Positions 12,954 through 33,415 of a DNA stretch of 64,000 nt are shown here, piece after piece. Under the pieces are notes generated by a model. It searched no databases. It worked only from the letters and a program-made list of their open reading frames with translations, and was not told where the DNA came from. Source of the DNA: Coriobacteriia bacterium (lineage in GTDB: Bacteria > Actinomycetota > Coriobacteriia > Coriobacteriales > QAMH01); the NCBI GenBank assembly GCA_003149935.1, contig QAMH01000010.1:14827-78826 (forward strand). The letters run 5' to 3'. A program made the translations under genes and the position numbers. The number at the start of each line of letters is the position of its first letter. Positions within the stretch are counted from its first letter, which is position 1.

Positions 12954-12965
12954 GATGACCCCCTC

Positions 12966-14456: not shown

Positions 14457-14578
14457 TCATCGTTTGTCAAGAGCATTGTACTACCGAATAGGCGAAATGC
14501 GCTATTTATTATTCGAGTGGCAATAGTGGTGCTAAGCAGTTGGTCTGTCCAGCAGCATCGAGATCCGGAAGGCCTCTT

Positions 14579-15835
14579 TTACCGCATCTTGCAAAGTGCC
14601 GTACATAGCGTACCGACAAGGCCGATGATCATGACGACACTGCCAGCAAGAAGCGTGTTCTCGAACGAGGGGCCCAGCAAGCCCTGGACGAGGAACGTAC
14701 CCAGGAACTGTCCAATCCCCTGGACGCAGATAAGAACGCCCATGCCGATAGTCGCAAGCTCCGGTCTACTGATCACCTTCATGAAGGCGGTTATCATGAG
14801 GCCGGTGGTGCCCATTCCGATCACACCCATAACCACTGCTCCCACCCACATCACGGCACTTTCGAAGTTGTAGAGAACGAAGGTGCACGGCCCCAGGAAG
14901 AACAGGCAGAAGACGAGCAGCCATTTGGTCTTGCCGGTCTTGTCGGATAGCATTCCGAAGAAAGGAGAAGAGGCAACCGAGATTATCATCGGCAGCGTGC
15001 TTACGAAACCCGACAGGCTTACATCCATGCCGCGCATCTGCAAAATCGAGGGAACCAGGCTCAGGACCGCAAGCAAGCATATGTTAAACGCGATGAACCC
15101 GCAGAAAAAGAGTAGGACGTCCTTCGTCAGAAGCTCGCGATACGAGGGCTTCGCTCCTATATGCGAGGCGGCTGCCTTGCCAGGTGTGACGTCCGATTGC
15201 GCCACCCCCGAAGCCCCTTCGGAGGCATTGACTGCGTCCTCGGGCGCCACAGGCGAGCCCTTCTTGAAAGGATCTCTTACGCAAATACACATGATGACAG
15301 TCGCAATCACGACCAGCGCACCGTAAAAGAGCCAAAGCGAGGTGAGCCCCGCAAACGCGAAGACCAATGGCGTCAGAAACGCGGCGATGGCGGAACCCAA
15401 AGACCCCCACATACCCCAGATGCCCATGGAAGTGCCGATACGCCCTGGTGCGACGCTTTCTTGTATGACCAGCGGGCCGCACGTGGTCACCGCCGTAAGT
15501 GCTATGCCCTCTATGCCACGTGACACGAGCAAGACGATGCCATTGGGCGCGAATGCCCCCATGACAGAGCCGAGAACGATGAGGCACGTCGCGAACACGA
15601 TGATTCTCTTCGGGCTCATGCGAACCGACAACTCACCTATGGCGATTGCCGTCACGGCCATCATGAGCGTGAAGATGGACATGAGCCACGAACCGCCACT
15701 TGCCGACATGGCATACTGCTCCATGATGGCGATCATGATCGTGGGAACCTTGTATTGGACCATTGCCATGGTCACCCCAACGGCCAATACCGAAAGGCTC
15801 ACGACAAGATAGTTCTGGTACTTCGGCTGAATCAC
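14579..15835 (-). CDS. MFS transporter
   Basis: 418 aa, two six-helix halves separated by a hydrophilic loop (KKGSPVAPEDAVNASEG...). Confidence 0.8.
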   Translation of the reverse strand: MIQPKYQNYLVVSLSVLAVGVTMAMVQYKVPTIMIAIMEQYAMSASGGSWLMSIFTLMMAVTAIAIGELSVRMSPKRIIVFATCLIVLGSVMGAFAPNGIVLLVSRGIEGIALTAVTTCGPLVIQESVAPGRIGTSMGIWGMWGSLGSAIAAFLTPLVFAFAGLTSLWLFYGALVVIATVIMCICVRDPFKKGSPVAPEDAVNASEGASGVAQSDVTPGKAAASHIGAKPSYRELLTKDVLLFFCGFIAFNICLLAVLSLVPSILQMRGMDVSLSGFVSTLPMIISVASSPFFGMLSDKTGKTKWLLVFCLFFLGPCTFVLYNFESAVMWVGAVVMGVIGMGTTGLMITAFMKVISRPELATIGMGVLICVQGIGQFLGTFLVQGLLGPSFENTLLAGSVVMIIGLVGTLCTALCKMR

Positions 15836-16097: not shown

Positions 16098-16174
<77 letters not shown>

Positions 16175-16306: not shown

Positions 16307-17590
16307 CTACGAATCGCTTATCGCAAGACCACAGCTGCGACTTCTCTTGAGATCGGCAATGATCTCATCGGCGCGCACGACAAAACGCGAGGCGACCTGC
16401 ACCGCCTGCGGACCGCATATCTCGATGACGAGCTGCGCATTGTTCCAGCAGTCGCAGAGTTCGCCGAGCATGTCCTGCACCGCCTTGGCCCGTGTATTGG
16501 TATCCTCAGCCGTATCGGGCAAAAGCTCTGCAAACTCACGTGTCACGTAGCGCAGCGCCTTGGCCAGCTTGCGCACGTCATGAACAGCCTCTTGGTCGTC
16601 ATAGCCAACGTGCGCCATCTGCAACTCGTAATCGGTACGCATCTGCGAAACGCGCCTGACGAGCTCCTGCGCATCGAGGCCGGACTGCCTGACGCAACGA
16701 CGCCAGGGCATGTCCTTGATGCGCCCGACCACGCGCGTAATTGCCTTTTGCGTAGACTCGGCAGCAAAGCGCTCGATGAATCCCGTACGAAGCTGCGTGC
16801 AAGCATCGGCCACGATACGTGCCTCGACCGTCTGCGAATCGAGCGCCTCGCAGAGCATGTCTAACTCGCGCAGACGCGAGGTCGGATCTTGTAGCTTCTT
16901 GATATCGCGCATGGTCTTCTTGAGCGCAGAACCCTTGCAATACGGCGCGAGGAAGCCCAGCAGCGAGCGCGCAATTCTCAACGAGATGCGATACTGATGC
17001 AGCGATTCGGGATCATCGGGATTCTCGAGTAGCATGACGCTACAGCGCGCGATGCGTGCGGCGGCATCGGAAAGGGCGTCCTCCACATCGACGATGCTCT
17101 GCCATAGCACGACACGCGGCCCCTGCACGAACCATTCGAGCCACGAGCCAACGCTTGCCGGATCATCCGTCGCCGCAAAACCGAACGACGCCATGGCACC
17201 AGTTCCCATGCCCTGCGGAGCCCCACTCAAGCGTGCGTAGAGCTCGTCCATGAAGGGATTATGTCCGACGGCGATAACGGTGCCCTGCTCTTCGACGAGC
17301 TCGGTCATGAAAGCATCGACGCTGTTGGCGTAAAGCGAATCCCGCACCTCGATGCCATCGACGCCGAGCGCATGCGCAACGACCTCGGCGGTTTGCATGG
17401 CACGCAGCGCCGGGCTGCTCCAGACCTTGACCTCGGCGACATCCTCGTCAGCCAGAAGCTGGAGCGAGATGGGAAACCGCGCCTCGATGCTATATCGACC
17501 GGCACGCGTGAGCTGACGGTCCTTGTCGATGAGCTCGGGGTTGCGCGCCTGGGTCTTAGCGTGCCTGACAAGAACCAATCTGGAAACCAT
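16307..17590 (-). CDS. SixA-type histidine phosphatase fused to CHAD domain
   Basis: The real start is taken at MVSRLVLVRHAKT (RHA/G phosphatase motif) after GGAGGG. The track's 92-aa R/H-rich N-extension overlaps the upstream gene. The C-terminal helical region with HDVRKLAKALRYVTREF fits CHAD. Confidence 0.7.
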   Translation of the reverse strand: MVSRLVLVRHAKTQARNPELIDKDRQLTRAGRYSIEARFPISLQLLADEDVAEVKVWSSPALRAMQTAEVVAHALGVDGIEVRDSLYANSVDAFMTELVEEQGTVIAVGHNPFMDELYARLSGAPQGMGTGAMASFGFAATDDPASVGSWLEWFVQGPRVVLWQSIVDVEDALSDAAARIARCSVMLLENPDDPESLHQYRISLRIARSLLGFLAPYCKGSALKKTMRDIKKLQDPTSRLRELDMLCEALDSQTVEARIVADACTQLRTGFIERFAAESTQKAITRVVGRIKDMPWRRCVRQSGLDAQELVRRVSQMRTDYELQMAHVGYDDQEAVHDVRKLAKALRYVTREFAELLPDTAEDTNTRAKAVQDMLGELCDCWNNAQLVIEICGPQAVQVASRFVVRADEIIADLKRSRSCGLAISDS

Positions 17591-17607
17591 GGGAACCCTC
17601 CTCGCGG

Positions 17608-18009
17608 CTATAGAGCCTCTGGATCTTCGCGTTTCAAGATGAAGTGATAGATGATGAGCACGATGCCCTCGATGGCCGCGGCGATAAGCGCGATGATGAT
17701 GACGATGTGCGCGTACAGGTAGATGCGCGCAAGGGCAGAGCCCGTGATGACAAGGATTGCCCCAATGACGACGGCAAGCGGAATATAGGTCTTGCCCTTG
17801 CCGGGGTCGCAGGAGACGGCATAGCCTGCCAGCGCGAAAACGACGGCCGAAAGTCCGGAGAACCACGTAATCGACGCAATGACCGTACCGATCTCCTGCA
17901 CCTGCATGAGAAGGCTAAATCCACACGCCGACCCACCGACGCCCGCGACGATCACCGAGATGATACGCGTCAGAATCTGTCGAGCCGAAAGTCGATACTC
18001 ATTACTCAT
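17608..18009 (-). CDS. Hypothetical integral membrane protein (4 predicted TM helices)
   Basis: 133 aa, four hydrophobic stretches. No recognisable motif. Confidence 0.55.
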   Translation of the reverse strand: MSNEYRLSARQILTRIISVIVAGVGGSACGFSLLMQVQEIGTVIASITWFSGLSAVVFALAGYAVSCDPGKGKTYIPLAVVIGAILVITGSALARIYLYAHIVIIIALIAAAIEGIVLIIYHFILKREDPEAL

Positions 18010-18027
18010 GCGGCATATGGTACCAGC

Positions 18028-19257
18028 TTACAGCGTGAACTGCATGCCGTCTTCGGCCACAATAACACGACCATCGAACTGCGCGGCATATGCGTAGATC
18101 TCGTCGATCTCGTTCACACCCGGATCGCACATGTGCGGCGCAAGATGCGTGAGATATATGTGTCCGGCATCGAGAATGTCGATGCCCTCGTGCACCGTCT
18201 GACGTACGTCATGATGCGAGCGTGCGGTCCCGTGATTCTCCCAGAACGTCGAATCCATGACGAGGTTGTCGACACCCTTGAGCATCTCGATGACCTCGGG
18301 CTTGAGATCGCTCGTATCGGGCGCGTAGAACGTACGACGTCCCTCGGGCGTGGTGATGAGGTAACCGAAGGTACCCGGCGCGTGCTTGAGCGGCAGCGCC
18401 TGAATCGCGAGGCCGTCCACCTCGCGTACGTCGTACGGGTTCATCACGTCGAGCGCAAAGCAATCGTCCATGTAGGAGTATTCCTTGAGCGCTTCGGCTA
18501 TGGCGTGCTCGCTTCCGTGAAACGGCATCGTGCCCATGAGGTACAGGCGGATGAAGTACTCGAACTCGCCCAGACCGCCCATGTGGTCGTAGTGGGCGTG
18601 GGTGAGGAAGAAGTCGTCGATGACATCGATGCCCTCGCGATTGAGCTGATGGCGGATGTCAGGTGACGCGTCGATAATGGTCGTCCCATGACCGCGCAGG
18701 GCAACGCCCGTGCAACCGCGACGCTTCGTCGGGTCCTTGCGTGCCGCCTCGCACGCAGGGCAATGGCAAAAGAAAGCCGGCACACCGCAGCCCGAGCTCG
18801 TCCCAAGGAAAGTGAAGGTCCGCTCGATGGGAAGGGAGCGGAAGGGCAGCGGGCCGCATGCGGCCTTGTCGGGACAGGCTTCGCACTCGGCACGATACTC
18901 GGGCGCGATGGCATCCCAGCCACAGCGCTCAAAGCCGCAGGACAGGTAGAAGGGCTCGATCTCACCGCGTGCCACGAGACGCAGGTCCGGATGAAGTCGC
19001 AACGCATCCTTGAGCAACGCACGACCCACGCCCTTGCCCTGGACGACGTCGAAGACGACGATGGGGCGCACGTTCCACGAACCGTCGCTGCCCTGCTCCA
19101 GGCGGCAGGCACCGTACATCGTGTTGTCTGGTGTCACGGCGACGCGTATTCCCTCGGGACTCGTGAGGTCGCTGAAGCCCTCGACCGAAAACAGGTACCG
19201 GATGAGATCCATGTCCGCCTCGACGCAATCGCGGATGTGGTATTCGGGTGCGATCAT
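18028..19257 (-). CDS. GNAT acetyltransferase fused to PhnP/PqqB-like MBL-fold hydrolase
   Basis: Start taken at MIAPEY (ATG 19257), which overlaps the upstream stop as ATGA. GNAT motif VVQGKGVGRALL. The MBL part has FLGTSSGCGVPAFFCHCPAC and THAHYDHMGG. Confidence 0.7.
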   Translation of the reverse strand: MIAPEYHIRDCVEADMDLIRYLFSVEGFSDLTSPEGIRVAVTPDNTMYGACRLEQGSDGSWNVRPIVVFDVVQGKGVGRALLKDALRLHPDLRLVARGEIEPFYLSCGFERCGWDAIAPEYRAECEACPDKAACGPLPFRSLPIERTFTFLGTSSGCGVPAFFCHCPACEAARKDPTKRRGCTGVALRGHGTTIIDASPDIRHQLNREGIDVIDDFFLTHAHYDHMGGLGEFEYFIRLYLMGTMPFHGSEHAIAEALKEYSYMDDCFALDVMNPYDVREVDGLAIQALPLKHAPGTFGYLITTPEGRRTFYAPDTSDLKPEVIEMLKGVDNLVMDSTFWENHGTARSHHDVRQTVHEGIDILDAGHIYLTHLAPHMCDPGVNEIDEIYAYAAQFDGRVIVAEDGMQFTL

Positions 19258-19805
19258 GCGTTGAATCCTTTCTCGAAGCGCCCGAAACGCCCGCGCTGCC
19301 CCATGAGCAGCGCCGGACACGGCTCGAGCTTGCCGTTGCCGTCGAGTTCGCCGCGCGTCTCGGCAACGAGCGTCCTACCGACGAAGAGCTCGTGATCCCC
19401 ATGCACGCGCGATTCCACCAGCTGGCACTCGATCCACGAGATGGCCTGCTCGATACGGGCGGCGTCAACATGAGCAGCCGGACACGCCGTGAGTCCCGCT
19501 TCGGCGAAGCGATCCTCGACGCCGTGCTTCCTACCGCACGCCATCGCGATGCGCGCGGCATCCTCGTCAGCACCGAGCACGTTCACGACGAAGCATCCCG
19601 ACTCGCGCATGGCGCACGCGGTCTGCCCGCCGGGGCGAATGGCGACGGCGATGAGGCTCGGCTCGTGCGAAATGGGCATGACCCATGCGATGGTCGCGAC
19701 CTTGTCCATGCCCGTGACATCACGAGCCGTGACGAGTGTCACGGTCGTGGGAACGAGCAGCGTGGCGATCTCGTTGCCGGTCAACTTGCTGAACGACTCC
19801 GTCAT
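19254..19805 (-). CDS. Flavin reductase-like (FMN-binding split-barrel) protein
   Basis: 183 aa. VTLVTA....DKVATIAWVMPISHEPSLIAVAIRP is typical of the flavin reductase family. Confidence 0.8.
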   Translation of the reverse strand: MTESFSKLTGNEIATLLVPTTVTLVTARDVTGMDKVATIAWVMPISHEPSLIAVAIRPGGQTACAMRESGCFVVNVLGADEDAARIAMACGRKHGVEDRFAEAGLTACPAAHVDAARIEQAISWIECQLVESRVHGDHELFVGRTLVAETRGELDGNGKLEPCPALLMGQRGRFGRFEKGFNA

Positions 19806-19817
19806 TACAATCTCCTC

Positions 19818-19890
19818 GATGAGACAGTTGCTCAGGGACGTTGTCTCATTTCTTCATAATGAGACAACGTCCCTGAGCAACTGTCTCATT
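19818..19890. repeat. Double (head-to-head) unit of TGAGACA palindromic repeat family; 32-bp perfect stem, 7-nt loop
   Basis: 19819-19850 is the exact reverse complement of 19858-19889 (checked base by base). Each half is itself a 9-bp-stem hairpin, AATGAGACA-N15-TGTCTCATT. Confidence 0.95.
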
Positions 19891-19906
19891 TTCCCGGTCA
19901 TCGCAC

Positions 19907-20887
19907 CTACATGATGGGCGGCACGTAGATCTTCATGCGCGACTGCGGAATGGCGCGCTTGGCAAGCTCCTGGCAACCCTCGACGATGGTGTCGAGGCGA
20001 TTTGCCGGCACACCCATGTACATCATGTCCTCGCCAATGTCGCTTGACGCGCGGCCGCCATAGCAGCCAAACGAGATGTTCGGCTCGTCGTTCATGAGCG
20101 GCAGCAGCGTCGCCTCCACGCATTGCGCGTTGAAACCCGACGCGTGGAAATCGTGGCGGTGTCCATCGAAGTACGACATGCTCATCGACAGCCACATCAT
20201 CTGCTCGGGCGTACCCGTGAAGACGATGACCTCGGGATGGCGCGTGCATGCGCCGAGTGGCTGCACGAGGGTGGCGCGCTTGGAGTTGGGCGGTAACGTG
20301 GGGCGCTCGGCCACCATCTTGGCCGCGGCCTCGGCATCCACGACCTTGTGGAAGAGCACGTAGATCTCGCCGGTGGCGAGCTTGTCGGGCACGCCGGTCA
20401 TGCCGAAGATCGAGGTGCCGTCGGGACAGGCGTGGCAATGGGGCGGCATGAGTATCGATGCGCCGCGGCGCGCCGCGTTCATGCTCTGGCAGTAGCGCAG
20501 CTTCTCGGTGGGCATGGGAACATCGGGCAGTGGCTCGTCGATGTCGATGAGCCCGACGGCCACCGGATGCCAGCGCAGGTCGAGCGCTTCCATGATGGCC
20601 TTCTCCGCCTCGGCGTAATGCTGCTGCTCCTCGGCGGAAATGGGCTCGGCGCGCTCCTCGCCGGCATACGGATCGAAGGCTGCGGCGCCGGGCAGCGACT
20701 TGATCACGATGGCGCGTTGCGGGCATTGCCCCGAGCAGGTCGTGCAGCCGACGCACGCCTCCATATCGACAGCCCTCGGCATGCCGTTATCGTCCACCTC
20801 GAGGCAGTACTGCGGGCAAAACGCCACGCATAGGCCGCAGGCAACGCAGCGATCCGCATCGTGTATGAACTCGTAGTCAGCGCTCAT
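19907..20887 (-). CDS. 4Fe-4S dicluster ferredoxin domain fused to DUF169 domain
   Basis: 326 aa. CVACGLCVAFCP and CVGCTTCSGQCP. The remainder (HPVAVGLI, YCQSMNAARRG, PEVIVFTGTPEQMMWL, SFGCYGGR) fits DUF169 as I recall it. Confidence 0.7.
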   Translation of the reverse strand: MSADYEFIHDADRCVACGLCVAFCPQYCLEVDDNGMPRAVDMEACVGCTTCSGQCPQRAIVIKSLPGAAAFDPYAGEERAEPISAEEQQHYAEAEKAIMEALDLRWHPVAVGLIDIDEPLPDVPMPTEKLRYCQSMNAARRGASILMPPHCHACPDGTSIFGMTGVPDKLATGEIYVLFHKVVDAEAAAKMVAERPTLPPNSKRATLVQPLGACTRHPEVIVFTGTPEQMMWLSMSMSYFDGHRHDFHASGFNAQCVEATLLPLMNDEPNISFGCYGGRASSDIGEDMMYMGVPANRLDTIVEGCQELAKRAIPQSRMKIYVPPIM

Positions 20888-20905
20888 GGACTGCTCCTTG
20901 TCGCA

Positions 20906-22213
20906 TTAGGCAGTGGGGCCGGTTCCCCACATCTCGTAGATACGCTCACCGGCAGAATTCGTCATCTGGTAGCTGCAAAACGGAATCACGCGCCCGTCCT
21001 TCATCGCCACCGTCATCGAGCATTCCGCCATGCGTTCGGTCGTGGTCGTCATCGCGTCCATGTAGTTCATGATAATGACGCTGATGCCGCGATAGAGGTT
21101 GACGCCCTTCTTGTAGAGGATGTCGGGCAATACCGAGCCCTGCGGGGACGTCGGGTCGTAGTACTGCATGTACTCCTCGCTCGACAGGCCGCGCGTGGCC
21201 GGGATATAGCTGCCGTTTTCGTCCGGCATGAGGAAGGTGCCCGTATCGCACAGCGGGTGCGAGCACCCGAGCGGCATGATGTCTGCGACCTTGATGCGTC
21301 CGCCTGTCTGCTCCTCGAGCGCGTAGATGGTGTCACCGGCCGTGTACGGTGCGTACTCGCTCGGCTCGAAACGTCCCGAAGTGAACGCGGGTTGCAGCGC
21401 CACGCCGATCACCACGTCGGAGTTCTCCCACGCAAAGTCGATGACCTCGCCAACGCGGTCGTCGTTGACGCCCTTGACGATCGTCATGCACAGAACGACC
21501 TGAATGCCCACCTCGCGGCAGTTCTCGATGCAGGCCATCTTATCGGCGAGCATCGCGGCCTTGCCGCATATGGCCTCGTAGGGCTCCTCGTCAATGCCGT
21601 CGAAGGAGAGGTAGATACCCGTGATGCCCGCGTCGACGAGCTTCTGCAGATAATCCTTGGAGCGGCCGATGACGATGCCGTTCGTGTTGATTTCGATGCC
21701 GGTGAAGCCGTGACGGCGTGCGCACATGACGATCTCGGGCAGGTCACTGCGCACCGTCGGCTCTCCGCCGGTGATTTGCAGGCCCGTCTCGGGGCCGACC
21801 TTCTCGGCAAGCGTCGTGATGAGCCCCTCGATCTCGTCGTAGGTGATACCGTCACTCGGGAAATCCGCGCTCATGAAGCACACGGGGCACTTCGCGTTGC
21901 AGCGGCGCGTGACTTCGATTTCCACCAGCGTGCCACGGCGCAGATGGCGCTTGCACAGGCCACAGCTCATGCAGCAGTCGCCCTCGATGGGATACTCGCG
22001 CCACTTTGGCGCCGTCGGCGTGACGCGCATCGAGCGCAGCCACTCGTAATGCTCCGCATTGGGCCACACGTACGTGATGGTCTCGCCATGCTCGGGACAG
22101 GTGCGCGTCATCCAGACCTTGCCGTCGCTGTCCGCGTAGATTTCGGCCTTCAGCTGCTCGAGGCAGTGCGGGCACAGCGCATGCGCCGTATGGAGAGTTC
22201 GATTCTCAGTCAT
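20906..22213 (-). CDS. Radical SAM protein with N-terminal zinc-ribbon
   Basis: 435 aa. CPHC...CPEHG ribbon, then EVTRRCNAKCPVCF (CX3CX2C) and GGEPT. Confidence 0.85.
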   Translation of the reverse strand: MTENRTLHTAHALCPHCLEQLKAEIYADSDGKVWMTRTCPEHGETITYVWPNAEHYEWLRSMRVTPTAPKWREYPIEGDCCMSCGLCKRHLRRGTLVEIEVTRRCNAKCPVCFMSADFPSDGITYDEIEGLITTLAEKVGPETGLQITGGEPTVRSDLPEIVMCARRHGFTGIEINTNGIVIGRSKDYLQKLVDAGITGIYLSFDGIDEEPYEAICGKAAMLADKMACIENCREVGIQVVLCMTIVKGVNDDRVGEVIDFAWENSDVVIGVALQPAFTSGRFEPSEYAPYTAGDTIYALEEQTGGRIKVADIMPLGCSHPLCDTGTFLMPDENGSYIPATRGLSSEEYMQYYDPTSPQGSVLPDILYKKGVNLYRGISVIIMNYMDAMTTTTERMAECSMTVAMKDGRVIPFCSYQMTNSAGERIYEMWGTGPTA

Positions 22214-22245
22214 GAAGGTCCTTTTCCATCCTTTTCACCTACGGA

Positions 22246-22399
22246 GGTAGCTCTTTCTCAAACAATAGCGAAGCAGAAAACGCTTTTCGTGAGGTGCCCT
22301 TGCGAGGACTGTCTGAGCAGGCGCTTTTTGCCTGCGAGTTCCGCAGCAGCCGAACGAAAAGCGTTTTCGGTTGCGGAGCGTGTTTGAGAAAGAGCTACC
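22246..22399. repeat. 154-nt nested inverted-repeat element between DUF2064 stop and radical SAM start
   Basis: Outer arms 22246-22264 / 22381-22399 (19 bp perfect). Inner arms 22276-22290 / 22354-22368 (15 bp). Central hairpin 22317-22335 (GCAGGC-GCTTTTT-GCCTGC). Confidence 0.9.
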
Positions 22400-23318
22400 G
22401 GAGTATCCCTTCGGTCTCCTCCGGCTCGTGTGCGGGCGCGTCGGCGCCATCCTCCACATCATCCAGATACTGGCGCGGATCATGGTTCTCGTTAGGTGCG
22501 GCATGCGGTTTGAGACCGAGGAAGTCAGCCCACTGCAAGACGCGCTTGGGCACGTAGATGCCGGTCTGGTACTCCGATGCCGTACGCAGGGCACGCGCGC
22601 AAGACAGACAGTGCGCGAGGTCCTCGACCTCGTCGACGTCGGCAACAGGCGCAAGATAGGCGTTGGGAATGCCTTCCTCGACGAGCTTCTCGACGTAGCC
22701 ATCAAGCGCGGGGCGTCCGGTCATGTTGTAGTAGATGCCCTGGTGGTTGATGGGCGTGTCGAAGTTGAATCCCACGAGCGAGGTGCCGCATTCCTGGCAC
22801 GGCGCCTGCACGAAGCCCGGCGTCCCGAGCACCTCGGCAAAGTAGATGAGCCACTGGAAAGCCTGGGTCACGTGCGCACGCGGCAACGTGGGAATGTCAG
22901 CGCCAATGGAGACGATGGCCTCATAGCCCTGGTCGAAGATCTCCTTGAACGCCATGTCGAAGTGATCGTCGAAAGTCGCGCCACGGTCGTACATGTAGTG
23001 AATCTCACGCGGCCACTGCCCGATTTCCTCGATCGTCTCCTTCATGAGGGCGACGTTCTTCTCGGGCGTCGTCGAGATGAAGAGATCGTAGCTACGCTCG
23101 GGAGCACTCGGATCAGCCTCGCGCTCTTCGCGATTCAGCGCCTCGAGGTCATCCATGCACCACATGGCAAGTTCGGTCACATCCCACAGGCTGCGCTTGA
23201 AGAACTGGGCGGCCTGCTCCTGGGTAAAGCCGCCACCACGCTCTACGGTGAGACGCGTTTTGACCAGACCGGGAATCGGCGGCTTGGAGAAGATGAGAAT
23301 CGCGTACTTCTTCTGCAT
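22395..23318 (-). CDS. DUF2064 (TIGR04282-like, nucleotidyl/glycosyl-transferase fold) protein
   Basis: 307 aa. The N-terminus AILIFSKPPIPGLVKTRL is the hallmark of DUF2064 proteins (memory). Confidence 0.7.
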   Translation of the reverse strand: MQKKYAILIFSKPPIPGLVKTRLTVERGGGFTQEQAAQFFKRSLWDVTELAMWCMDDLEALNREEREADPSAPERSYDLFISTTPEKNVALMKETIEEIGQWPREIHYMYDRGATFDDHFDMAFKEIFDQGYEAIVSIGADIPTLPRAHVTQAFQWLIYFAEVLGTPGFVQAPCQECGTSLVGFNFDTPINHQGIYYNMTGRPALDGYVEKLVEEGIPNAYLAPVADVDEVEDLAHCLSCARALRTASEYQTGIYVPKRVLQWADFLGLKPHAAPNENHDPRQYLDDVEDGADAPAHEPEETEGILR

Positions 23319-23323
23319 GGGTG

Positions 23324-25543
23324 CTACTCCTTCTTTCTAATGCGGCAGGGAATGCCGTTGTAAATCCACGTCCCGATAAGCGGCTCGCGCGCGCCCTCGA
23401 CGGTACCGCGCGTGAGCAGATTGATGTTTGACTCGAAGCATTTCCCGAAGTCGGGGTCGTCTTCGACTGCCTCAGGGTACCACCATCCGTATTCGGCTGA
23501 TGCGACATCGTCAAGTATATTCGTGATATGCACATATTGGAGTACCTCAACGTCCGGCGTATCCTGACGCGAGATGAGGCACGCATCGCCTTCGGCAAGG
23601 CCCAGACGCTCAGCCGTTGCCTGCGAAAGCTCGACAGTCGGCTTGGGATGGCGAGCGCGCATCGATGGAATCTCGAAGTACGAGGAGGCCCAATAGGGCT
23701 GCTTGCGCGCGCCGGTGATGAGCGTGACGCAATCGGGATCGTGGCATACATCCGCATGCACGCCGGGCACCGGCGTGAAGCGAGCTACTACATCCGCCCC
23801 CCGTCGCTGTAAGAACGGGATGGCGAGCTCCACTTTGCCGCTTTCGGTCGCGAACCCGCGTGGCTCGCCCGTTGTCTCGTCAATCTCGAGGTGCTTGAAG
23901 TAATGTGCTCCCCCACCACACAAGCCCGTAATGGTGAAATCCTCCCAGCTCATGCCCGTCGGCGCGATCGTACGCGCGAGCTCTTCGGTCAGGTCTCGCG
24001 CCGGCCACAGCGCCTCATCACAGCCCATGCGCAAGGCGAGGTCGCGCAGGATTGCGTAGTCCTCGCGGCGCTCGAACTGCGGCTCGACCGCCGCCGGACC
24101 GCCGTAACAGAAGTCGGAGACACCACCCATCGCCTGGAAGCACGGGTGCTCGACGGCAGCGGCAGCGGGAAGAACGTAGTCAGCCATGAGGGCCGTGGGC
24201 GTCATGACGAACTCGAGCACGACGATGAGATCCATCGCCTCGAACGCTTCCATGACAAGCCGCGTGTCGGCATAGGTGACAAGCGGGTTTGCTCCGTCGA
24301 CGATGAGCGCACTCACGCGATAGGGCTTATCGGTGATAGCCGCCTCCCATACGCGTTGCGGTAGCGCGGAGGTGAGGTAGCGCATCGGCAGATGACGCCC
24401 AAGCTTGCCCGTGCGCGCGTCGGCGAGCTCCCAGCCGGCGTAGCTCTGTATGCCGCAATCGGGTTCATTCAGCCCATGCGCGCGTGCCTCGGCAGACAGC
24501 AACGCGCTGTCCTCGAGCTCGAGCTCGCTCATGAAGCTCGGTGCCTCGTTGAGGACGTTGCCGCCCGGCACGTCGACATTGCCCGTGATGGCACGCAGCG
24601 CTGCGATGACACGATGCAACGGCGCGGTATTGGGACCAATCTGGTCGACGCCGCGTCCCGAGAGCAGGCCTGCCGGCTTGCTCGTCGCGTACATGCGAGC
24701 TGCCGCACGTATATCCTCGGCACTCACCTGCGTGATGGCAGCTGCCTCGTCTATCGTGCGCTCGAACGCAGCGGTCTTGAACTCGTCGAAACCAGAGCAC
24801 CATTGTTCGACAAACTCGTGATCATAGAGGTCCTCCTCGATGATGACACGGGCAAACGCGTAGGCGAGGACGAGATCGGTACCCGGGAAGGGAGCGAGCC
24901 ACAGTGTCGCCTTGGCCGCCGTCATGGAAAGCCGCGTATCGATGATGATGAGCTTGCCATCGTTGCGGACGTAATCGGCGATGTTGCGCCAGAAGAGCGA
25001 ATTGTCCGACTCGGCCGGATTGGTGCCCCAGAGCATGAGGCATTCCGTGAGGTCGGGTCTGAAGTCGCACTCGACCGACCAACCGTAGGTCATCGTATCC
25101 ATCCAGATACGGGGGTTCCAGCAAATGGGGCCGATGCCCATGTTGTTGGGGCTGTCGATGAAACTCATGAAGCGATGAAGTGGCCAGTAGACCGCATGCG
25201 GCCCCCCGATGGCGCTCGCCACCGTCCACGGCCCGTGGGCGTCGATGAGCAAGCGCAGGCGCGTCGCGATATCGTCAAGCGCCTCGTCCCAGCTCACGCG
25301 AATAAACCCACCGCCGCCACGTGGCCCTATGCGTTTCAGGGGATAGTTGACGCGGGTGCTTTCGTCGTAGAGCTTCTCGAGGTTGAGCGGCCAGCGGCAG
25401 CAGCGTGCCGCCACACTCGTGTCATACGGATAGCGCGTGGGATCCGGCGTGAAATCGACAACACGCCCGTCCTCGAGCGTTGCATCGAAGGCGCACAGGT
25501 ATCCGCAGTAATGGCAATTGGTTTTGCGTATCTCAGTAGTCAT
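23324..25543 (-). CDS. Molybdopterin (bis-MGD) oxidoreductase, cytoplasmic type
   Basis: 739 aa. N-terminal Fe-S motif CHYCGYLC...C, no signal peptide. Conserved blocks YPLKRIG..G..F.RVSWDEALD and the C-terminal MGD-binding domain. Confidence 0.9.
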   Translation of the reverse strand: MTTEIRKTNCHYCGYLCAFDATLEDGRVVDFTPDPTRYPYDTSVAARCCRWPLNLEKLYDESTRVNYPLKRIGPRGGGGFIRVSWDEALDDIATRLRLLIDAHGPWTVASAIGGPHAVYWPLHRFMSFIDSPNNMGIGPICWNPRIWMDTMTYGWSVECDFRPDLTECLMLWGTNPAESDNSLFWRNIADYVRNDGKLIIIDTRLSMTAAKATLWLAPFPGTDLVLAYAFARVIIEEDLYDHEFVEQWCSGFDEFKTAAFERTIDEAAAITQVSAEDIRAAARMYATSKPAGLLSGRGVDQIGPNTAPLHRVIAALRAITGNVDVPGGNVLNEAPSFMSELELEDSALLSAEARAHGLNEPDCGIQSYAGWELADARTGKLGRHLPMRYLTSALPQRVWEAAITDKPYRVSALIVDGANPLVTYADTRLVMEAFEAMDLIVVLEFVMTPTALMADYVLPAAAAVEHPCFQAMGGVSDFCYGGPAAVEPQFERREDYAILRDLALRMGCDEALWPARDLTEELARTIAPTGMSWEDFTITGLCGGGAHYFKHLEIDETTGEPRGFATESGKVELAIPFLQRRGADVVARFTPVPGVHADVCHDPDCVTLITGARKQPYWASSYFEIPSMRARHPKPTVELSQATAERLGLAEGDACLISRQDTPDVEVLQYVHITNILDDVASAEYGWWYPEAVEDDPDFGKCFESNINLLTRGTVEGAREPLIGTWIYNGIPCRIRKKE

Positions 25544-25611
25544 AGCTCATGATTGTACTGCATGCACCGAACAAACACGGGGACTCTCCGGTTACAACAC
25601 GGAGACGGAGC

Positions 25612-25896
25612 GCCCCCCCCCTTGTCATTTCGAGCGGAGCGGACGGGGCCGCGCCCCCCTGTCATTTCGAGCGAGGCGAACGGGGCCGCGCCCCCCCCTG
25701 TCATTTCGAGCGGAGCGAACGAAGTGAGCGGAGTCGAGAAATCTCGGTCTTTCGCTTAATAGACAGCAGCGGTGGAGATTTCTCCACTCCGGCGCTACGC
25801 GCCTTCGGTCGAAATGACAAGAGACAAACCTTACGGCCCCTTCGGTCGGAATGACAAGGGGTAGGCCTTACGGCCCCTTCGGTCGGAATGACAAAA
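25612..25896. repeat. F1-family repeat array: three direct units then three inverted units (large imperfect palindrome)
   Basis: TGTCATTTCGAGCG starts at 25623, 25660 and 25699 (37/39-bp spacing). Inverse units end in TCGAAATGACA at 25818 and TCGGAATGACA at 25856 and 25893. Confidence 0.9.
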
Positions 25897-25898
25897 GG

Positions 25899-27053
25899 CT
25901 AGTCGACGAGCGTAAGCTCCTCGTTCTCCGAAAGCTCCGCGTACGCCGGGTCGGCGAAAAGTGCATCGACGCTCGCGTATACCTCGCCCCAATCGACGGG
26001 GCAATCGAAGATTTGCTCAAGGTAATGCTGCACGGGCGTGCTTCCCACACCGCGTTGCAACGAGTTGACACATGAGAAGCAGGTCGAAAGCACGCGGTCA
26101 GCATCCACTCCGTCAATCTCGGCCAAACGCAGGTTGCGGCGATACGCGCAGTAATCGGGAGCGCACACGCTCACCATGCCACCCCCACCGCAGCACAGGC
26201 AATCGCGTTTCTCGTGCGGCATGCTCTTGAATGTCGCGTTCTCAAACAGGCTGCGTGCCGCACTGCCAAAGAAACCGGCAGAACGGTCGTAACACGCGTC
26301 GTGAAAGGTGATGGTCTCGGTGCTCTGCGATATCATGCCGCGCTCGACGAGCAGATCGGGCAGCCGCACGATCTCGATTTCCATTCCCTCGATAAGCTGT
26401 GGCAGCAGATGAGCGCAGTGCGGACAGGTGACGACCAGGCGCTTGATTTCCTTCTCGCGCAGAAAAGCCTGCACGCGCTCACGATAGGCATCGTACTCGT
26501 CATAGAAACCGACATCGTAGAAGGTCGCACCGCAGCAAATTGTCAGGGTATAGGCGGCGATGTCCTCGTCGCGCAGCCACTGCGAGACCTTGGCGGTAAG
26601 TTCCGGAGCATACGCATACAACGCACAGCCCGGGAAGAAGGCGGTGTGATTAGCGTCTTCACCCAGGTTAGCCTCGCCTTGGATATAGGTGACGTTGGTG
26701 ATGTCGCCGGCATCACGTGCGCGCAGCGCCGAGAACACGTTGTACTTGAGATCTGTCCTGAATTTGCGATACAGGGGCCTCAGCTCGGGCTTCTGCTTAA
26801 GTAGTAGCGCCCTGAGCGGCTTGGTGGCGCGTGAGGCGACCAGGTCGACCGGACAATTAATCGTGCACCGATTGCATAGCGCGCACGTGAAGGGCGCGTA
26901 ATCCCAGGTTTCCTCGCCGTTGAGGATGGACTCGCACAGCTCGCCGAGATTAGGCTCGCCATTCGAGAAGTTGCCGCAATCGGTCCGGGCACAGAGGCCG
27001 CAGCGAATGCAACTGTCAGAAAAATCCTGCACGTCTTCCAGCGGGTGATGCAT
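25899..27053 (-). CDS. HdrD/GlpC-like Fe-S protein (4Fe-4S dicluster plus CCG cysteine-rich domains)
   Basis: Start taken at MHHPLEDV (ATG 27053) after GGAAGGA. CIRCGLCARTDC, CALCNRCTINCP, and a later CLCCGGGG. Confidence 0.8.
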   Translation of the reverse strand: MHHPLEDVQDFSDSCIRCGLCARTDCGNFSNGEPNLGELCESILNGEETWDYAPFTCALCNRCTINCPVDLVASRATKPLRALLLKQKPELRPLYRKFRTDLKYNVFSALRARDAGDITNVTYIQGEANLGEDANHTAFFPGCALYAYAPELTAKVSQWLRDEDIAAYTLTICCGATFYDVGFYDEYDAYRERVQAFLREKEIKRLVVTCPHCAHLLPQLIEGMEIEIVRLPDLLVERGMISQSTETITFHDACYDRSAGFFGSAARSLFENATFKSMPHEKRDCLCCGGGGMVSVCAPDYCAYRRNLRLAEIDGVDADRVLSTCFSCVNSLQRGVGSTPVQHYLEQIFDCPVDWGEVYASVDALFADPAYAELSENEELTLVD

Positions 27054-27171
27054 CTCGAGTCCTTCCTCGCAGCGTGTTTGTGCCCGATTATACGCCAATG
27101 TGCCAAGAGGCCTGACCCCCTGACACATTCACGCTTGCAAACGAGCAGGTAGCCGTCAACTTCCCCACCAC

Positions 27172-27211
27172 GTCAAACAAAGACCCCCGCCTCTTGGAGG
27201 AGACGGGGGTC
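27172..27211 (-). terminator. Rho-independent terminator ending the Mo-enzyme/4Fe-4S/NrfD operon
   Basis: Arms 27182-27189 / 27204-27211 (GACCCCCG/CGGGGGTC), followed on the minus strand by TTTGTTTG. Confidence 0.6.
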
Positions 27212-27251
27212 GTTCGCATTACTCGCTCGTAGCGAACTGCAAAAGCAGCTC

Positions 27252-28343
27252 CTACTGGGCGCCAGTCATGGCCGGGTTGGGGCCAGAGGTCTGGTAAACC
27301 TCATCGGGACCGTCGGCAGGTGCCTCATCGGCAACCTCACCAGCAGGCGTAACCCACGTCCAGTACTCCTTGCCAGCCTCCCAGTAATCCATGAAGTCCT
27401 GGTGGCTCTGCGGCAGACGCGTGTAGTACTTGAGCTCTGCGGGGGTGACGCGACGCTGATAGCTCCAGATAATCATGAAGCGGAGCAGGCAGCCACCCAT
27501 GAGGGCGATGATCTGCGAAGCGTAGCCGCCCACGCTCGTGATGTTGAGCACGAACGGAATGACCAGACCGCAGCAAACCATGAGGCCCCAGAAGTAACCG
27601 GCCCACTCGCCACGGACCCAGCGCTCCGCATGGGACTTGGCGGTCTCGTTGGAAGCGCAGAACTGCAGCATCACGTACAGGAGCAGCACGACGAGCTCGA
27701 GTGCGATGAGAATCGCGTCGGCAACGTGCAGGATGTGACGCAGCTCCTCGGTGAGCAGCGCGGCAAGCGGCGTGGACAGGTTGACCTGCAGCCACTCGGC
27801 CGGGAAGGGCCACACGCCGATGCACATGGAGAGCAGGGCCGCACCCGTGGAGCAACCGGACACCATGAAGAGCACGGGCAGAACCGGCGTGTTCCAGAAC
27901 GGACGGGACTTCATGCTGGAGAGCAGAACGCCCGTGTAGATCGTGACGCAGAGGCCGAAGATGCCGGCGATGCCGAGCAGAACCTGAGCGCAGCCTTCAT
28001 ACGGAATGAAGGGCAGGAACGTGAACCAGGAGAGCTCCCAGAAGATGAAGAGCACGCCTGCGATCATCGAAATGGAGAGGAACACGGCACCCCACTTGAT
28101 GACCGAGGTCCTCGTCACGAAGGCACGGTAGAAAATCCACGGCTGACCGAGCTCGAACACGAGCAGGCCAGTGCCGATGCCCAGGATGAGGAACGCGATG
28201 AAGACGCCCCAGACCAGAGCACCACTGGTAAGAGCAGACGGCGCGATGAGCAATCCGACAACGGCGGCGGTCGCCATCATGCCGCCACCAAGGCCGCCCA
28301 AGAAGAGGTAGAGGGCGATAGGCCAAATCCAGAACTGTTTCAC
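27252..28343 (-). CDS. NrfD/PsrC-family polytopic membrane anchor subunit
   Basis: 363 aa. WIWPIALYLFLGGLGGG and SRPFWNTPVLPVLF are NrfD-family signatures. 4-nt overlap with the upstream gene. Confidence 0.85.
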   Translation of the reverse strand: MKQFWIWPIALYLFLGGLGGGMMATAAVVGLLIAPSALTSGALVWGVFIAFLILGIGTGLLVFELGQPWIFYRAFVTRTSVIKWGAVFLSISMIAGVLFIFWELSWFTFLPFIPYEGCAQVLLGIAGIFGLCVTIYTGVLLSSMKSRPFWNTPVLPVLFMVSGCSTGAALLSMCIGVWPFPAEWLQVNLSTPLAALLTEELRHILHVADAILIALELVVLLLYVMLQFCASNETAKSHAERWVRGEWAGYFWGLMVCCGLVIPFVLNITSVGGYASQIIALMGGCLLRFMIIWSYQRRVTPAELKYYTRLPQSHQDFMDYWEAGKEYWTWVTPAGEVADEAPADGPDEVYQTSGPNPAMTGAQ

Positions 28344-28903
28344 TGTACCGTACCTCCTAAATCGGGGATGTAGTAGATCATGGGCTCGGTACCAACCTCG
28401 GGATAGACCTGCTCGGTGTAATACGAGTTCACGAGCTTCGAGACCTCGCTGTTGGGGTCATCGAGATCGCCGAACGTGCGGGCCTTCTGATGACAGGTCA
28501 TGACGCAGAAGGGCTGCTCGCCCTCGCGGACACGATCCTTGCAGAAGGTGCACTTGCGGATGTAGCCCTCGTGCTCGTTCATATCGCGAGCGCCGTAGGG
28601 GCACGCATTCGCGCAGACCTTGCATCCCATGCACTGGGAAGGCTCAACCCACACGATACCGTCATCGTCCTGGCGGGACGCGCCGGTCGGGCAGGCGGGC
28701 ACGCAAGCGGGCTTGTCGCAGTGCATGCAGATGAGCGGCGTGAAGGTCATGTGGACATGAGGCCACACGCCCTCTGCTCCGTTGGAAACAACGGGGTTGT
28801 AGATGATGTCAATGGGCAGCTCGTTCCAGGTGCGGCATGCGATGGTGCATGACGAGCAACCAATGCAACGACGCTGGTCCATAACCATTGCGTAACGGGT
28901 CAT
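28340..28903 (-). CDS. 4Fe-4S ferredoxin-type electron-transfer subunit (DmsB/PsrB-like)
   Basis: Start taken at MTRYAMVMDQRRC (ATG 28903) after AGAGGAGG. Four Cys groups: CIGCSSCTIAC, CMHCDKPACVPACP, CMGCKVCANACP, CTFC. Confidence 0.9.
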   Translation of the reverse strand: MTRYAMVMDQRRCIGCSSCTIACRTWNELPIDIIYNPVVSNGAEGVWPHVHMTFTPLICMHCDKPACVPACPTGASRQDDDGIVWVEPSQCMGCKVCANACPYGARDMNEHEGYIRKCTFCKDRVREGEQPFCVMTCHQKARTFGDLDDPNSEVSKLVNSYYTEQVYPEVGTEPMIYYIPDLGGTVQ

Positions 28904-28919
28904 TCCAGTCCTCCTCTCT

Positions 28920-31835: not shown

Positions 31836-32027
31836 ATGTTTGCATTACCTGCTTTCCGCAGACCATGCAGTCATGCGGAACACCTCCTACGAAGACGTCG
31901 CCATCTTCGCGTGTTGACGTTATCTACCTGCACCGCCTGTGACCGCAATGACAAGCGGACATGGCGATGCCGACGTCTAACGTCTAACTTCCGTATTAAA
32001 TCACGGGATGGAGGTTATGTGAAGCTA

Positions 32028-32083
32028 TGAAAAGGGGGATTTCGCCTGCGAGCGCAATCTGCACCGCTTTCGGCGAAATCCCC
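32028..32083 (-). terminator. Hairpin terminator downstream of mrp-like gene
   Basis: GGGGATTTCGCC (32035-32046) pairs with GGCGAAATCCCC (32072-32083), 25-nt loop. The minus strand continues CTTTTC. Confidence 0.45.
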
Positions 32084-32130
32084 ATCATGTTCGTGCGCTA
32101 GCAAGCGCTTTTCACACAAGGAGTCAAGTA

Positions 32131-32955: not shown

Positions 32956-33079
32956 GTTGAATCTCCCTAAGCCGTCCTGACATCCCAGGACCTCTCTCTT
33001 AAAAGCCGTGCTTCATGGTAATGCATGCCCCAAGCGCACACCAGTTACGAAACGGCAACCAAGCACTTTGCCAGCACAC

Positions 33080-33111
33080 GAAAAAAGGAGGCCAAGACAT
33101 ATGTCCCGGCC
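33080..33111 (-). terminator. Rho-independent terminator after tRNA-Val
   Basis: 33090-33111 forms a 9-bp stem (two G-U pairs) with an ATAT loop. The minus strand continues TCCTTTTTT. Confidence 0.6.
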
Positions 33112-33125
33112 CCCTTGCATGTACC

Positions 33126-33200
33126 TGGTGGGCGTTACTGGGATCGAACCAGTGGCCTTTTCCGTGTCAGGGAAACGCGCTCCCGCTGCGCCAAACGCCC
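33126..33200 (-). tRNA. tRNA-Val (anticodon GAC)
   Basis: Manual cloverleaf: GGGCGTT acceptor, anticodon arm TTTCC-CTGACAC-GGAAA, T arm ACTGG-TTCGATC-CCAGT, CCA encoded. Confidence 0.9.
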
Positions 33201-33302
33201 GTGGCAAAGTAGTCTAACAGAATGACGCTTCATCGCAAGCACGTATTTTTACAAGTTTCTCTTGCGCTTTGCCAAAAACTTCCCTAGAATACCGCTCTGC
33301 GC

Positions 33303-33378
33303 GCGGAAGTGGCTCAGTTGGTAGAGCACAACCTTGCCAAGGTTGGGGTCGCGGGTTCGAGCCCCGTCTTCCGCTCCA
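33303..33378 (+). tRNA. tRNA-Gly (anticodon GCC)
   Basis: GCGGAAG acceptor, anticodon arm CAACC-TTGCCAA-GGTTG, T arm GCGGG-TTCGAGC-CCCGT, CCA encoded. Confidence 0.9.
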
Positions 33379-33387
33379 TGCTAAGTC

Positions 33388-33415
33388 AAGAGCCGGCTTC
33401 CCAGTCGGCTCTTTT
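33388..33415 (+). terminator. Hairpin plus T-run between tRNA-Gly and tRNA-Cys
   Basis: AAGAGCCG (33388-33395) pairs with CGGCTCTT (33406-33413), followed by TT. Confidence 0.45.

Follow-up and report, generated by a model that had tools for sequence, protein, structure and literature searches.

A conserved locus of gut Coriobacteriia with two predicted acetylene-hydratase-clade molybdenum enzymes and a third branch of the Tes/TrsS radical SAM superfamily

The stretch of DNA analysed here, referred to as the window, comprises 64,000 nucleotides of contig QAMH01000010.1 (positions 14,827 to 78,826, forward strand) from a Coriobacteriia bacterium (assembly GCA_003149935.1), and all positions below are those of the window. 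On its minus strand lies a locus of about 14 kb and 11 genes (18028-31835) that brings together two molybdenum enzymes, a radical SAM enzyme and proteins with the domains of unknown function DUF2064 and DUF169. The locus is vertically inherited in respiratory gut Coriobacteriia, and it is a version of a catalogued, uncharacterised type of neighbourhood in which TrsS-type radical SAM enzymes adjoin pterin enzymes. Families were assigned by hidden Markov model (HMM) scans with Pfam and NCBIfam, and matches to solved structures were taken from PDB. The features of the locus and its surroundings are summarized in Table 1.

The initial annotation of this DNA had described a string of six co-directional genes running down from position 25543. 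The listing of open reading frames (ORFs) and the HMM scans bear out all six genes, and their family assignments stand. The gaps claimed between them are exact, with 5 nt at 23319-23323 and 18 nt at 20888-20905, and direct reading of the sequence gives the ATGA stop/start overlap at 19254-19257; the two structured interruptions that had been mentioned are palindromic elements. The string does not begin at 25543, however. Four more co-directional and syntenic genes occupy 25899-31835, so that the six genes form only the downstream part of the locus, and a CCG-domain protein and a second molybdenum enzyme, anchored by an NrfD-type protein, had been overlooked.

Table 1. Features of the locus and its flanks in the window, from upstream to downstream with respect to the minus strand.
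Feature	Position	Strand	Details
Four tRNA genes	33129-33624		upstream flank
Mrp/ApbC-type Fe-S cluster carrier	32131-32955	-	directly upstream of Mo971
Mo971, acetylene-hydratase-clade bis-MGD catalytic subunit (predicted)	28920-31835	-	971 aa; Pfam Molybdop_Fe4S4, Molybdopterin, Molydop_binding, OCRE
Four-cluster ferredoxin (FeS) subunit (DmsB/NrfC/DsrO-like)	28340-28903	-	likely start ATG 28903; mechanical ORF reaches 29035
NrfD-type integral membrane, quinol-interacting anchor	27252-28343	-	Pfam NrfD 92.9 bits
Terminator-like hairpin	27182-27211	-	NrfD-CCG intergenic; 12 bp, 9 G-C pairs, then T-run; consensus scan only
CCG protein, 2x[4Fe-4S] region + two CCG domains (HdrD/GlpC/TfrB-like)	25899-27128	-	likely start near 27053; Pfam CCG 54.6 bits
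Repeat-rich CCG-MoAH spacer	25544-25898	.	direct and inverted copies of ~28-nt unit; inverted pairs I2, I7
MoAH, soluble acetylene-hydratase-clade bis-MGD enzyme (predicted)	23324-25543	-	739 aa; Pfam Molybdopterin 130 bits + Molydop_binding
DUF2064 protein, nucleotide-diphospho-sugar/nucleotidyl-transferase fold	22395-23318	-	307 aa; Pfam DUF2064 51.3 bits (cut-off 25.8)
Nested palindromic insertion	22246-22399	.	inverted repeats I4 (19 nt, 100%) and I5; DUF2064-radical SAM spacer, overlaps DUF2064 stop codon
Radical SAM enzyme, Tes/TrsS superfamily	20906-22213	-	435 aa; Zn_ribbon_HMPTM 55.8 bits, Radical_SAM 93.7 bits
2x[4Fe-4S] ferredoxin domain fused to DUF169 (PF02596)	19907-20887	-	326 aa; Fer4 + DUF169 174.2 bits vs 27, full profile
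Perfect palindrome	19819-19889	.	32-nt arms, 100% complementary; between ferredoxin-DUF169 and flavin reductase genes
Flavin reductase-like (split-barrel FMN) protein	19254-19805	-	183 aa; Pfam Flavin_Reduct 105.7 bits
GNAT N-acetyltransferase fused to PhnP/PqqB-type metallo-beta-lactamase (MBL)-fold hydrolase	18028-19257	-	409 aa; Acetyltransf_7, Lactamase_B_2 74.6 bits
Histidine phosphatase (SixA-like) + CHAD fusion	16307-17866	-	Pfam His_Phos_1 + CHAD
tRNA gene	16101-16174		downstream flank
Two major facilitator superfamily (MFS) transporters + amino-acid permease	11532-15835	-	downstream of locus

Conservation of this neighbourhood, which the initial annotation had named as a check capable of refuting its reading, was followed in a one-genome-per-species collection with the DUF2064 protein as anchor. 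The scan gave 143 matches, of which 80 loci were fetched; together with five loci fetched earlier, 85 were mapped, and the counts given here are over the loci with enough flank. The 80 loci come from Gordonibacter, Paraeggerthella, Ellagibacter, Adlercreutzia, Raoultibacter, Enterorhabdus, Parvibacter and Aphodovivens as well as from the uncultured gut lineage of the window. The recurrent order is Mo971-FeS-NrfD-CCG-MoAH-DUF2064-radical SAM-ferredoxin/DUF169-GNAT, and the locus proteins share 25-70% identity with those of the window. Over many coriobacterial species, amino-acid identity within the syntenic locus is 50-60%. MoAH stands immediately upstream of the anchor in 72/72 loci, Mo971 further upstream in 51/51, and the radical SAM gene downstream in 78/78. 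The remaining genes are nearly as constant, namely the FeS subunit (56/59 loci), NrfD (56/60), the ferredoxin-DUF169 protein (64/70), GNAT (54/64) and the CCG protein (54/63, at only 25-30% identity). Neighbourhoods labelled with Pfam families agree. Synteny across genera, the fusion or fission of GNAT and MBL described below, and the fusion of ferredoxin with DUF169 in both domain orders strongly favour functional coupling. The locus is not a mobile island; its surroundings are of the housekeeping type, with dnaG, ribF and truB around it. Seven of the fetched records (L017-L020, L025, L026, L028) bear other taxon names, among them Akkermansia muciniphila, Agathobacter rectalis, Bacteroidaceae, Ruthenibacterium and Oscillibacter. 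Since they hold the syntenic locus at ~80% identity to the coriobacterial one, they are probably mis-binned coriobacterial contigs. The name Eggerthella lenta appeared on no match of the scan, which is not decisive for that species. In the literature, no paper on this neighbourhood was found; DUF169 and DUF2064 are mentioned only in passing, and none was found for the DVU_155x tags.

Both molybdenum enzymes, MoAH and Mo971, are assigned by their sequences to the acetylene-hydratase clade of the dimethyl sulfoxide (DMSO) reductase superfamily, whose members carry bis-molybdopterin guanine dinucleotide (bis-MGD). They are paralogues (34% identity over 744 aa), and acetylene hydratase (PDB 2e7z) is the best solved structure for each, with E 2.5e-73 for MoAH and 5e-120 for Mo971. 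The Fe4S4 domain of MoAH scores slightly under the Pfam cut-off (21.7 vs 22.7) with its C-x2-C-x3-C...C motif present, and in the alignment to 2e7z both this motif and the cysteine equivalent to the tungsten ligand Cys141 are conserved. The metal-ligand cysteine of Mo971 (...NALLCWIP...) lies at the matching place in its pairwise alignment with MoAH. Because the FeS motif and the cysteine ligand are kept and the closest structure is that of acetylene hydratase, both enzymes look catalytically intact. Neither is assigned as acetylene hydratase proper, since the position of the catalytic Asp13, which directly follows the second FeS cysteine, holds Gly in MoAH (2e7z alignment) and His in Mo971 (from its translation). 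Two OCRE domains form the C-terminus of Mo971 (28923-29561; 34.8 bits vs cut-off 24.7) and are found in the Paraeggerthella orthologue too. Elsewhere, as far as we are aware, OCRE is confined to RNA-binding proteins of eukaryotes.

The upstream part of the locus has the architecture common to Psr/Phs/Nrf-type reductases, in which a catalytic bis-MGD subunit is combined with a four-cluster ferredoxin and an NrfD anchor. PhsA (303 bits) is among the best NCBIfam matches of Mo971, and the FeS subunit matches NrfC (170 bits), ArrB (164) and DsrO (160); the FeS-subunit scores are all under their cut-offs and those of the PhsA kind far under. Unlike the exported enzymes of this type, Mo971 and its FeS subunit bear no twin-arginine translocation (Tat) signal, and Mo971 ends in the OCRE repeats. 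Orthologues of the FeS subunit begin MTRYVMVIDQRRCIGC and have no signal peptide, and the twin-arginine (RRxFL) motif is absent from the true N-termini of MoAH, Mo971 and the FeS-subunit orthologues; RRxFL-like matches were located only in spurious upstream ORF extensions and were rejected as Tat signals. The initial annotation was right to call MoAH signal-less, as its start lies only 8 residues ahead of the C-x2-C-x3-C motif. With Mo971 and the FeS subunit both devoid of a Tat motif, the membrane-anchored Mo971-FeS-NrfD enzyme should face the cytoplasm. Between NrfD and MoAH, the CCG protein finds its best NCBIfam match in NF045663, the dicluster/CCG protein of TrsS neighbourhoods (86.5 bits, under cut-off).

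The radical SAM enzyme has an N-terminal Zn ribbon, a CxxCxxC auxiliary motif, a CX3CX2C core and a C-terminal ...MD...C...IPFC sequence. It was rejected as a member of TrsS (NF045646; 332.6 bits vs cut-off 490, bona fide members scoring 493-619 bits), the canonical accessory neighbourhood of which is also missing, and as a member of Tes (NF045702; 311.9 vs 450 bits), with a match that stops at residue 321. Its rubredoxin-like Zn-ribbon N-terminus, auxiliary-cluster motif and radical SAM core are shared with Tes/GDGT-MAS (PDB 7tol; E 1.7e-75, residues 12-321 of 435), to which the C-terminal ~115 residues do not align. Tes further differs in that the present protein has a bacterial host and no lipid genes nearby. 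In an exhaustive HMMER search of 1.84 billion representatives, one per 50%-identity cluster of public proteins, the enzyme's own clade scored 831 bits, and the full-length relatives that come next reached ~270 bits. Of ten such relatives checked, half are bona fide TrsS proteins and the rest match TrsS best, yet under its cut-off. The scores below both cut-offs and the gap between 831 and ~270 bits place the enzyme on a third branch of the superfamily beside Tes and TrsS. As an observation on the public clusters, the 90%-identity cluster of a 438-aa radical SAM protein (P0236) includes many 341-aa Ellagibacter members named 'DUF169 domain-containing protein', which may reflect either faulty clustering or a gene call wrongly drawn across the radical SAM/DUF169 junction.

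The DUF2064 protein has a conserved C-terminal extension of ~70 aa and the invariant motifs KTRLT, GADIPT, PCQECGTSLVG and NExHDPRQY. Its homologues number hundreds, and among the 120 listed all with an organism name are Coriobacteria. The ferredoxin-DUF169 protein is, with ~70% identity across genera, the best-conserved protein of the locus, and its DUF169 part holds the invariant residues C133, C154, C256, C275 and H152. All three proteins recur on the contig that carries the nearest radical SAM homologue outside the Coriobacteriia clade (L173; 48% GC), where the genes run HtpG, radical SAM, DUF2064, DUF169::ferredoxin and solute-binding protein, with the trio at 1318-4933. Identities to the window are 42% for the radical SAM enzyme, 30% for the DUF2064 protein and 42% for the DUF169 protein, whose invariant cysteines and histidine are kept. 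The gene order is unlike that of the window, the radical SAM enzyme lacks the Zn ribbon and is apparently truncated at its C-terminus, and the ferredoxin is fused to the opposite end of DUF169. The three genes thus appear to form a core module. Fusion of ferredoxin with DUF169 has occurred independently in each of the two domain orders, and these two fusions argue that DUF169 would itself need electrons and not be a mere relay. The initial annotation had cast the ferredoxin-DUF169 protein as an electron supplier; this is incomplete for the best-conserved protein of the locus, whose DUF169 domain has four invariant cysteines of its own.

The wider context was obtained by comparing the neighbourhoods of TrsS proteins and 80 further TrsS-like metagenome loci. 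The TrsS neighbourhood families NF045646, NF045663, NF045666 and NF045667 are said to go back to work by Haft and Tolstoy published in mSystems in 2025. That work is cited in a further paper (PMC13188914). The canonical order is an aldehyde oxidoreductase of the xanthine oxidase (XO) family, an NF045663-like flavo/FeS/CCG protein, DUF7479, a methyltransferase, C_GCAxxG, TrsS and an AMP ligase. Genes that frequently follow are those for XdhC, an NTP_transf_3/HD protein and a histidine phosphatase as well as ModABC-like genes, and MoeA is often in the vicinity too. Thirty of the TrsS-like loci have 7 kb or more of upstream flank. Of these, 19 hold a molybdenum enzyme of the XO or DMSO-reductase family and two more a tungsten aldehyde ferredoxin oxidoreductase (AFOR), which brings pterin molybdenum or tungsten enzymes to 21/30. 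In L125, two DMSO-reductase paralogues stand in tandem together with FmdE. In 30/46 loci TrsS has a dicluster/CCG protein nearby, and a His_Phos_1 gene is present in 12/80, often beside the NTP_transf_3/HD gene. The association of a TrsS-type radical SAM enzyme with a CCG protein and a pterin enzyme is therefore general, extending over three unrelated enzyme families (seen at L091/L092 3928-12416, L090 82-9378, L125 3186-12749, L121 9240-13445 and L114 15819-17807); XO-type enzymes and tungsten AFOR are non-homologous aldehyde oxidoreductases, and the third family is the DMSO-reductase type.

The window shares several of these traits. Its radical SAM enzyme aligns with TrsS over the full length and has in common with it the Zn ribbon, the CxxCxxC motif and the C-terminal ...FxD...C...IPFC sequence. 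Both kinds of locus have a pterin molybdenum or tungsten enzyme and a dicluster/CCG protein nearby, and in TrsS loci a gene of the NTP-transferase fold and a histidine phosphatase are often near, as at the window locus. Unlike in TrsS loci, the molybdenum enzyme of the window is placed in the acetylene-hydratase clade and is accompanied by a paralogue with an NrfD anchor. We suggest, tentatively, that Tes/TrsS-type radical SAM enzymes are habitual partners of pterin molybdenum and tungsten enzymes from three unrelated families and do more than couple lipid tails, and that the coriobacterial locus is a distinct version of this partnership. It could take the form of an unactivated C-H bond being functionalised anaerobically and then passed to a molybdenum-dependent redox or hydration step, with the DUF2064 and DUF169 proteins acting as catalysts.

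The gene content, families, synteny, fusions, missing signal peptides and wider association described above are observations. They can be explained by a single pathway, in which all products of the locus would act on one small molecule. The radical SAM enzyme would carry out radical C-H functionalisation and might be reduced through the ferredoxin domain, the flavin reductase or both, while the DUF2064, GNAT and MBL proteins would attach a handle (nucleotide, sugar-phosphate or acetyl) and take it off again. The two molybdenum enzymes would perform two-electron redox or hydration steps, Mo971 being wired to the menaquinone pool through NrfD and MoAH to the CCG protein. The catalytic roles, the direction of electron flow and the single shared substrate are what we infer. 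Because unrelated pterin enzymes, two families of them aldehyde oxidoreductases, interchange beside TrsS-type radical SAM enzymes, the proposal that the molybdenum enzymes are steps of one small-molecule pathway, and not clients of a cofactor-maturation system, is favoured, and we put its chance of being right at about even. The initial annotation had proposed a dedicated pathway that modifies a cofactor or substrate for the molybdenum enzyme. Synteny and fusions sustain the dedicated pathway; the idea that the accessory proteins serve the molybdenum enzyme or its cofactor gains no specific support, as TrsS relatives adjoin three unrelated pterin-enzyme families and the trio of L173 has no molybdenum enzyme beside it.

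Several observations weigh against a single pathway centred on the molybdenum enzymes. The position of the L173 trio on a 5.8-kb contig that holds no molybdenum enzyme shows that the module is separable from these enzymes, at least in position. The analogy with TrsS would have to be carried by the radical SAM enzyme, the CCG protein and the pterin enzyme only, since the DVU_1556-type methyltransferase, DVU_1553-type AMP ligase, C_GCAxxG and DUF7479 genes (present in 40-48/80 TrsS loci) are absent here, and DUF2064, ferredoxin-DUF169, GNAT, MBL and flavin reductase occur in none of the 80 TrsS loci. The likeness of the CCG protein to NF045663 is weak even by direct comparison (21% identity; E 4e-9 to the L091 homologue). 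The terminator-like hairpin between NrfD and CCG may divide the locus into two or more transcription units, and synteny alone is no proof of a shared pathway. Each catalytic role proposed above is assigned by protein family, two of these families being domains of unknown function; AlphaFold2 gave a predicted local distance difference test (pLDDT) score of 47 for the ferredoxin-DUF169 protein from a 16-sequence alignment of close homologues only. Finally, a locus inherited vertically and kept in one place could equally have a housekeeping role in cofactor or lipid metabolism.

A first alternative is a maturation system. The radical SAM, DUF2064 and DUF169 proteins would then build or modify the pyranopterin or bis-MGD cofactor, or modify the adjoining molybdenum enzyme post-translationally, with DUF2064 acting as a MobA/MocA-like nucleotidyl transferase and MBL as a phosphodiesterase. 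Only 5 nt separate the DUF2064 gene from that of MoAH, and the fold class of the DUF2064 protein is that of MobA, MocA and CofC, as seen in its best PDB match (3cgx, E 2.8e-5) and in the alias 'glyco_like_cofC' of TIGR04282. Outside its own superfamily the radical SAM core is nearest to MoaA (97 bits; PDB 1tv7). An archaeal member of the family was originally annotated as a pterin methylase, the Pfam name Zn_ribbon_HMPTM points the same way, and one homologue is named '7,8-dihydro-6-hydroxymethylpterin dimethyltransferase' by the Joint Genome Institute (JGI). XdhC, NTP_transf_3/HD, MoeA and ModABC-like genes are moreover frequent in TrsS loci. However, XdhC, the MocA-like gene and ModABC are accounted for by the usual maturation of the aldehyde oxidoreductase next to them, and the XO-family, DMSO-reductase-family and AFOR partners of TrsS-type genes use differently finished cofactors. 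For the many other bis-MGD enzymes of these bacteria the standard MobA is sufficient, and in the fetched Coriobacteriia loci the trio stands beside this one pair of molybdenum enzymes only. The solitary trio of L173 speaks against maturation as well, and so does an Rfam scan of 17800-33200, which at the gathering threshold and at E<=1 found only tRNAs and no molybdenum cofactor (Moco) riboswitch or other element. Taken together, these points make a maturation role unlikely.

Lipid or quinone tailoring comes with a similarly low probability. According to this explanation, the radical SAM enzyme would be a bacterial Tes/Mss-like tail coupler with a hydrophobic substrate at the cytoplasmic face of the membrane; it is compatible with the small-molecule pathway as a special case and adds a specific claim on the substrate. 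The sole characterised relative, GDGT-MAS/Tes, couples lipid tails, and the default reading of bacterial Tes homologues in the literature is that they produce membrane-spanning lipids (PMC8941075). The NrfD anchor and the signal-less catalytic subunits would place the active site at the cytoplasmic membrane surface, canonical TrsS loci hold an acyl-AMP-ligase-like gene, a methyltransferase and aldehyde oxidoreductases, and the locus is inherited vertically in a housekeeping setting. Against these points stand the score below the Tes cut-off (312 vs 450), the alignment to 7tol over residues 12-321 only, and the lack of any lipid-synthesis gene conserved at the locus. The ADH and MMPL genes beside the Paraeggerthella copy, together with TRIC, SpoU and phosphatase genes there, were considered as locus members and rejected, not being conserved elsewhere. 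We know of no membrane-spanning lipid reported for this bacterial family.

An arsenosugar-like or organo-metalloid pathway is very improbable. It derives from source records that name some Ellagibacter and Paraeggerthella orthologues of the DUF2064 protein 'TIGR04282 family arsenosugar biosynthesis glycosyltransferase', and the initial annotation had also named this family. By its TIGRFAMs description, TIGR04282 occurs together with a phosphoesterase and a radical SAM enzyme, to which the MBL and radical SAM proteins here are parallel; in the TIGR04282/TIGR04167 'rSAM/selenodomain-associated transferase' set, now assigned to arsenosugar biosynthesis, a DUF2064-family transferase likewise lies by a radical SAM gene and a phosphoesterase-type hydrolase. 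Membership is not borne out, as the DUF2064 protein scores 61.1 bits where the curated cut-off demands 134. The adjoining radical SAM enzyme is of the Tes/TrsS and not the TIGR04167/ArsS type, TIGR04167 being missing among the best 25 of its 48 NCBIfam matches, and the locus has no ArsM-like methyltransferase or other arsenic-related gene. Chance juxtaposition of independently acting genes, for which the terminator-like hairpin, the long repeat-filled spacers and promoter-like and terminator-like sites at chance rate could be cited, is effectively refuted by a gene order kept across genera at 25-70% identity, by the gene fusions and by the spacers being strain-variable insertions.

Working out the chemistry of the locus, if it is such a radical and molybdenum partnership, would for the first time assign functions to DUF169, DUF2064 and the TrsS family, and it would define a core trait of the Eggerthellaceae. 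Members of this family perform many transformations of drugs, catechols, lignans and polyphenols in the gut via enzymes of the DMSO-reductase family. The present locus is not a strain-variable reductase cassette of that kind. It is a family-wide syntenic system in which two predicted cytoplasm-facing, acetylene-hydratase-like enzymes accompany two domains of unknown function and a radical SAM enzyme. As a well-delimited and genetically compact system, it is a suitable starting point for learning what DUF169, DUF2064 and the Tes/TrsS branch of radical SAM enzymes do. The catechol dehydroxylases of Eggerthella and Gordonibacter are, according to the literature, related to acetylene hydratase, and they occur in alpha-beta-gamma and alpha-beta architectures (PMC11574389). 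They come from the same bacterial family as the host group. Unlike these enzymes and acetylene hydratase, the locus is kept at one position across genera, together with a radical SAM module and with no Tat signal on any subunit. A caution follows for the reading of genomes, in that not every bacterial Tes homologue should be read as a marker of membrane-spanning lipids; in this data set many adjoin aldehyde oxidoreductases and other pterin enzymes.

GNAT and MBL are fused in the lineage of the window. In Eggerthellaceae each has a gene of its own, GNAT closing the locus at the 3' end and MBL lying at the 5' end, where with two exceptions it is encoded on the opposite strand. The motifs QGKGVG and HAHYDH (HxHxDH) are present in the translation of the fusion; its MBL part has the fold and motif and scores under the curated cut-offs of PhnP (102.9 vs 272) and PqqB (67.5 vs 245). 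The flavin reductase gene is inside the string and co-directional in the lineage of the window. In many Eggerthellaceae a homologue with 25-34% identity lies just downstream of GNAT on the opposite strand. The gene for the histidine phosphatase/CHAD fusion follows GNAT-MBL in L006-L013, close relatives of the window, and also in L015, where the gap is longer. Since the Eggerthellaceae locus lacks it, it is possibly a lineage-specific twelfth member. In 33 Eggerthellaceae loci (L001 at 13819-14250 and 32 others), a cysteine-rich PadR-family regulator is encoded on the opposite strand beyond GNAT and the flavin reductase. Outside Paraeggerthella it has 69-90% identity across genera, far above the enzymes, and it is absent from the 64-kb window.

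Three spacers of the locus carry members of a small palindromic element family resembling repetitive extragenic palindromes or miniature inverted-repeat transposable elements (REP/MITE-like), the presence and length of which vary among genomes that are 98-99% identical. The palindrome at 19819-19889 is missing in L008 and L011, where the gap is 26 nt as opposed to 103-128 nt, and the element at 22246-22399 is missing in L007, L008 and L009 (7 nt vs 111-214 nt). The arm sequence of the 32-nt palindrome also occurs in the DUF2064-radical SAM spacer of L010, so both spacers carry it there. The CCG-MoAH spacer ranges from 88 to 324 nt among near-identical relatives. From the shrinkage to 7 nt and 26 nt in genomes of 98-99% identity, it follows that the inserts are strain-variable, recent insertions into an otherwise tight string with native gaps of these lengths. 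In the consensus scan, promoter-like and terminator-like sites occur no more often than by chance.

Beyond the locus, tRNA genes are found on both flanks, with housekeeping genes further out. The MFS transporter and permease genes downstream are co-directional with the locus. Also co-directional is the gene for the Mrp/ApbC-type Fe-S cluster carrier on the upstream side, whose best NCBIfam match is MrpORP (299 bits, under cut-off) and whose position is not kept in Eggerthellaceae.

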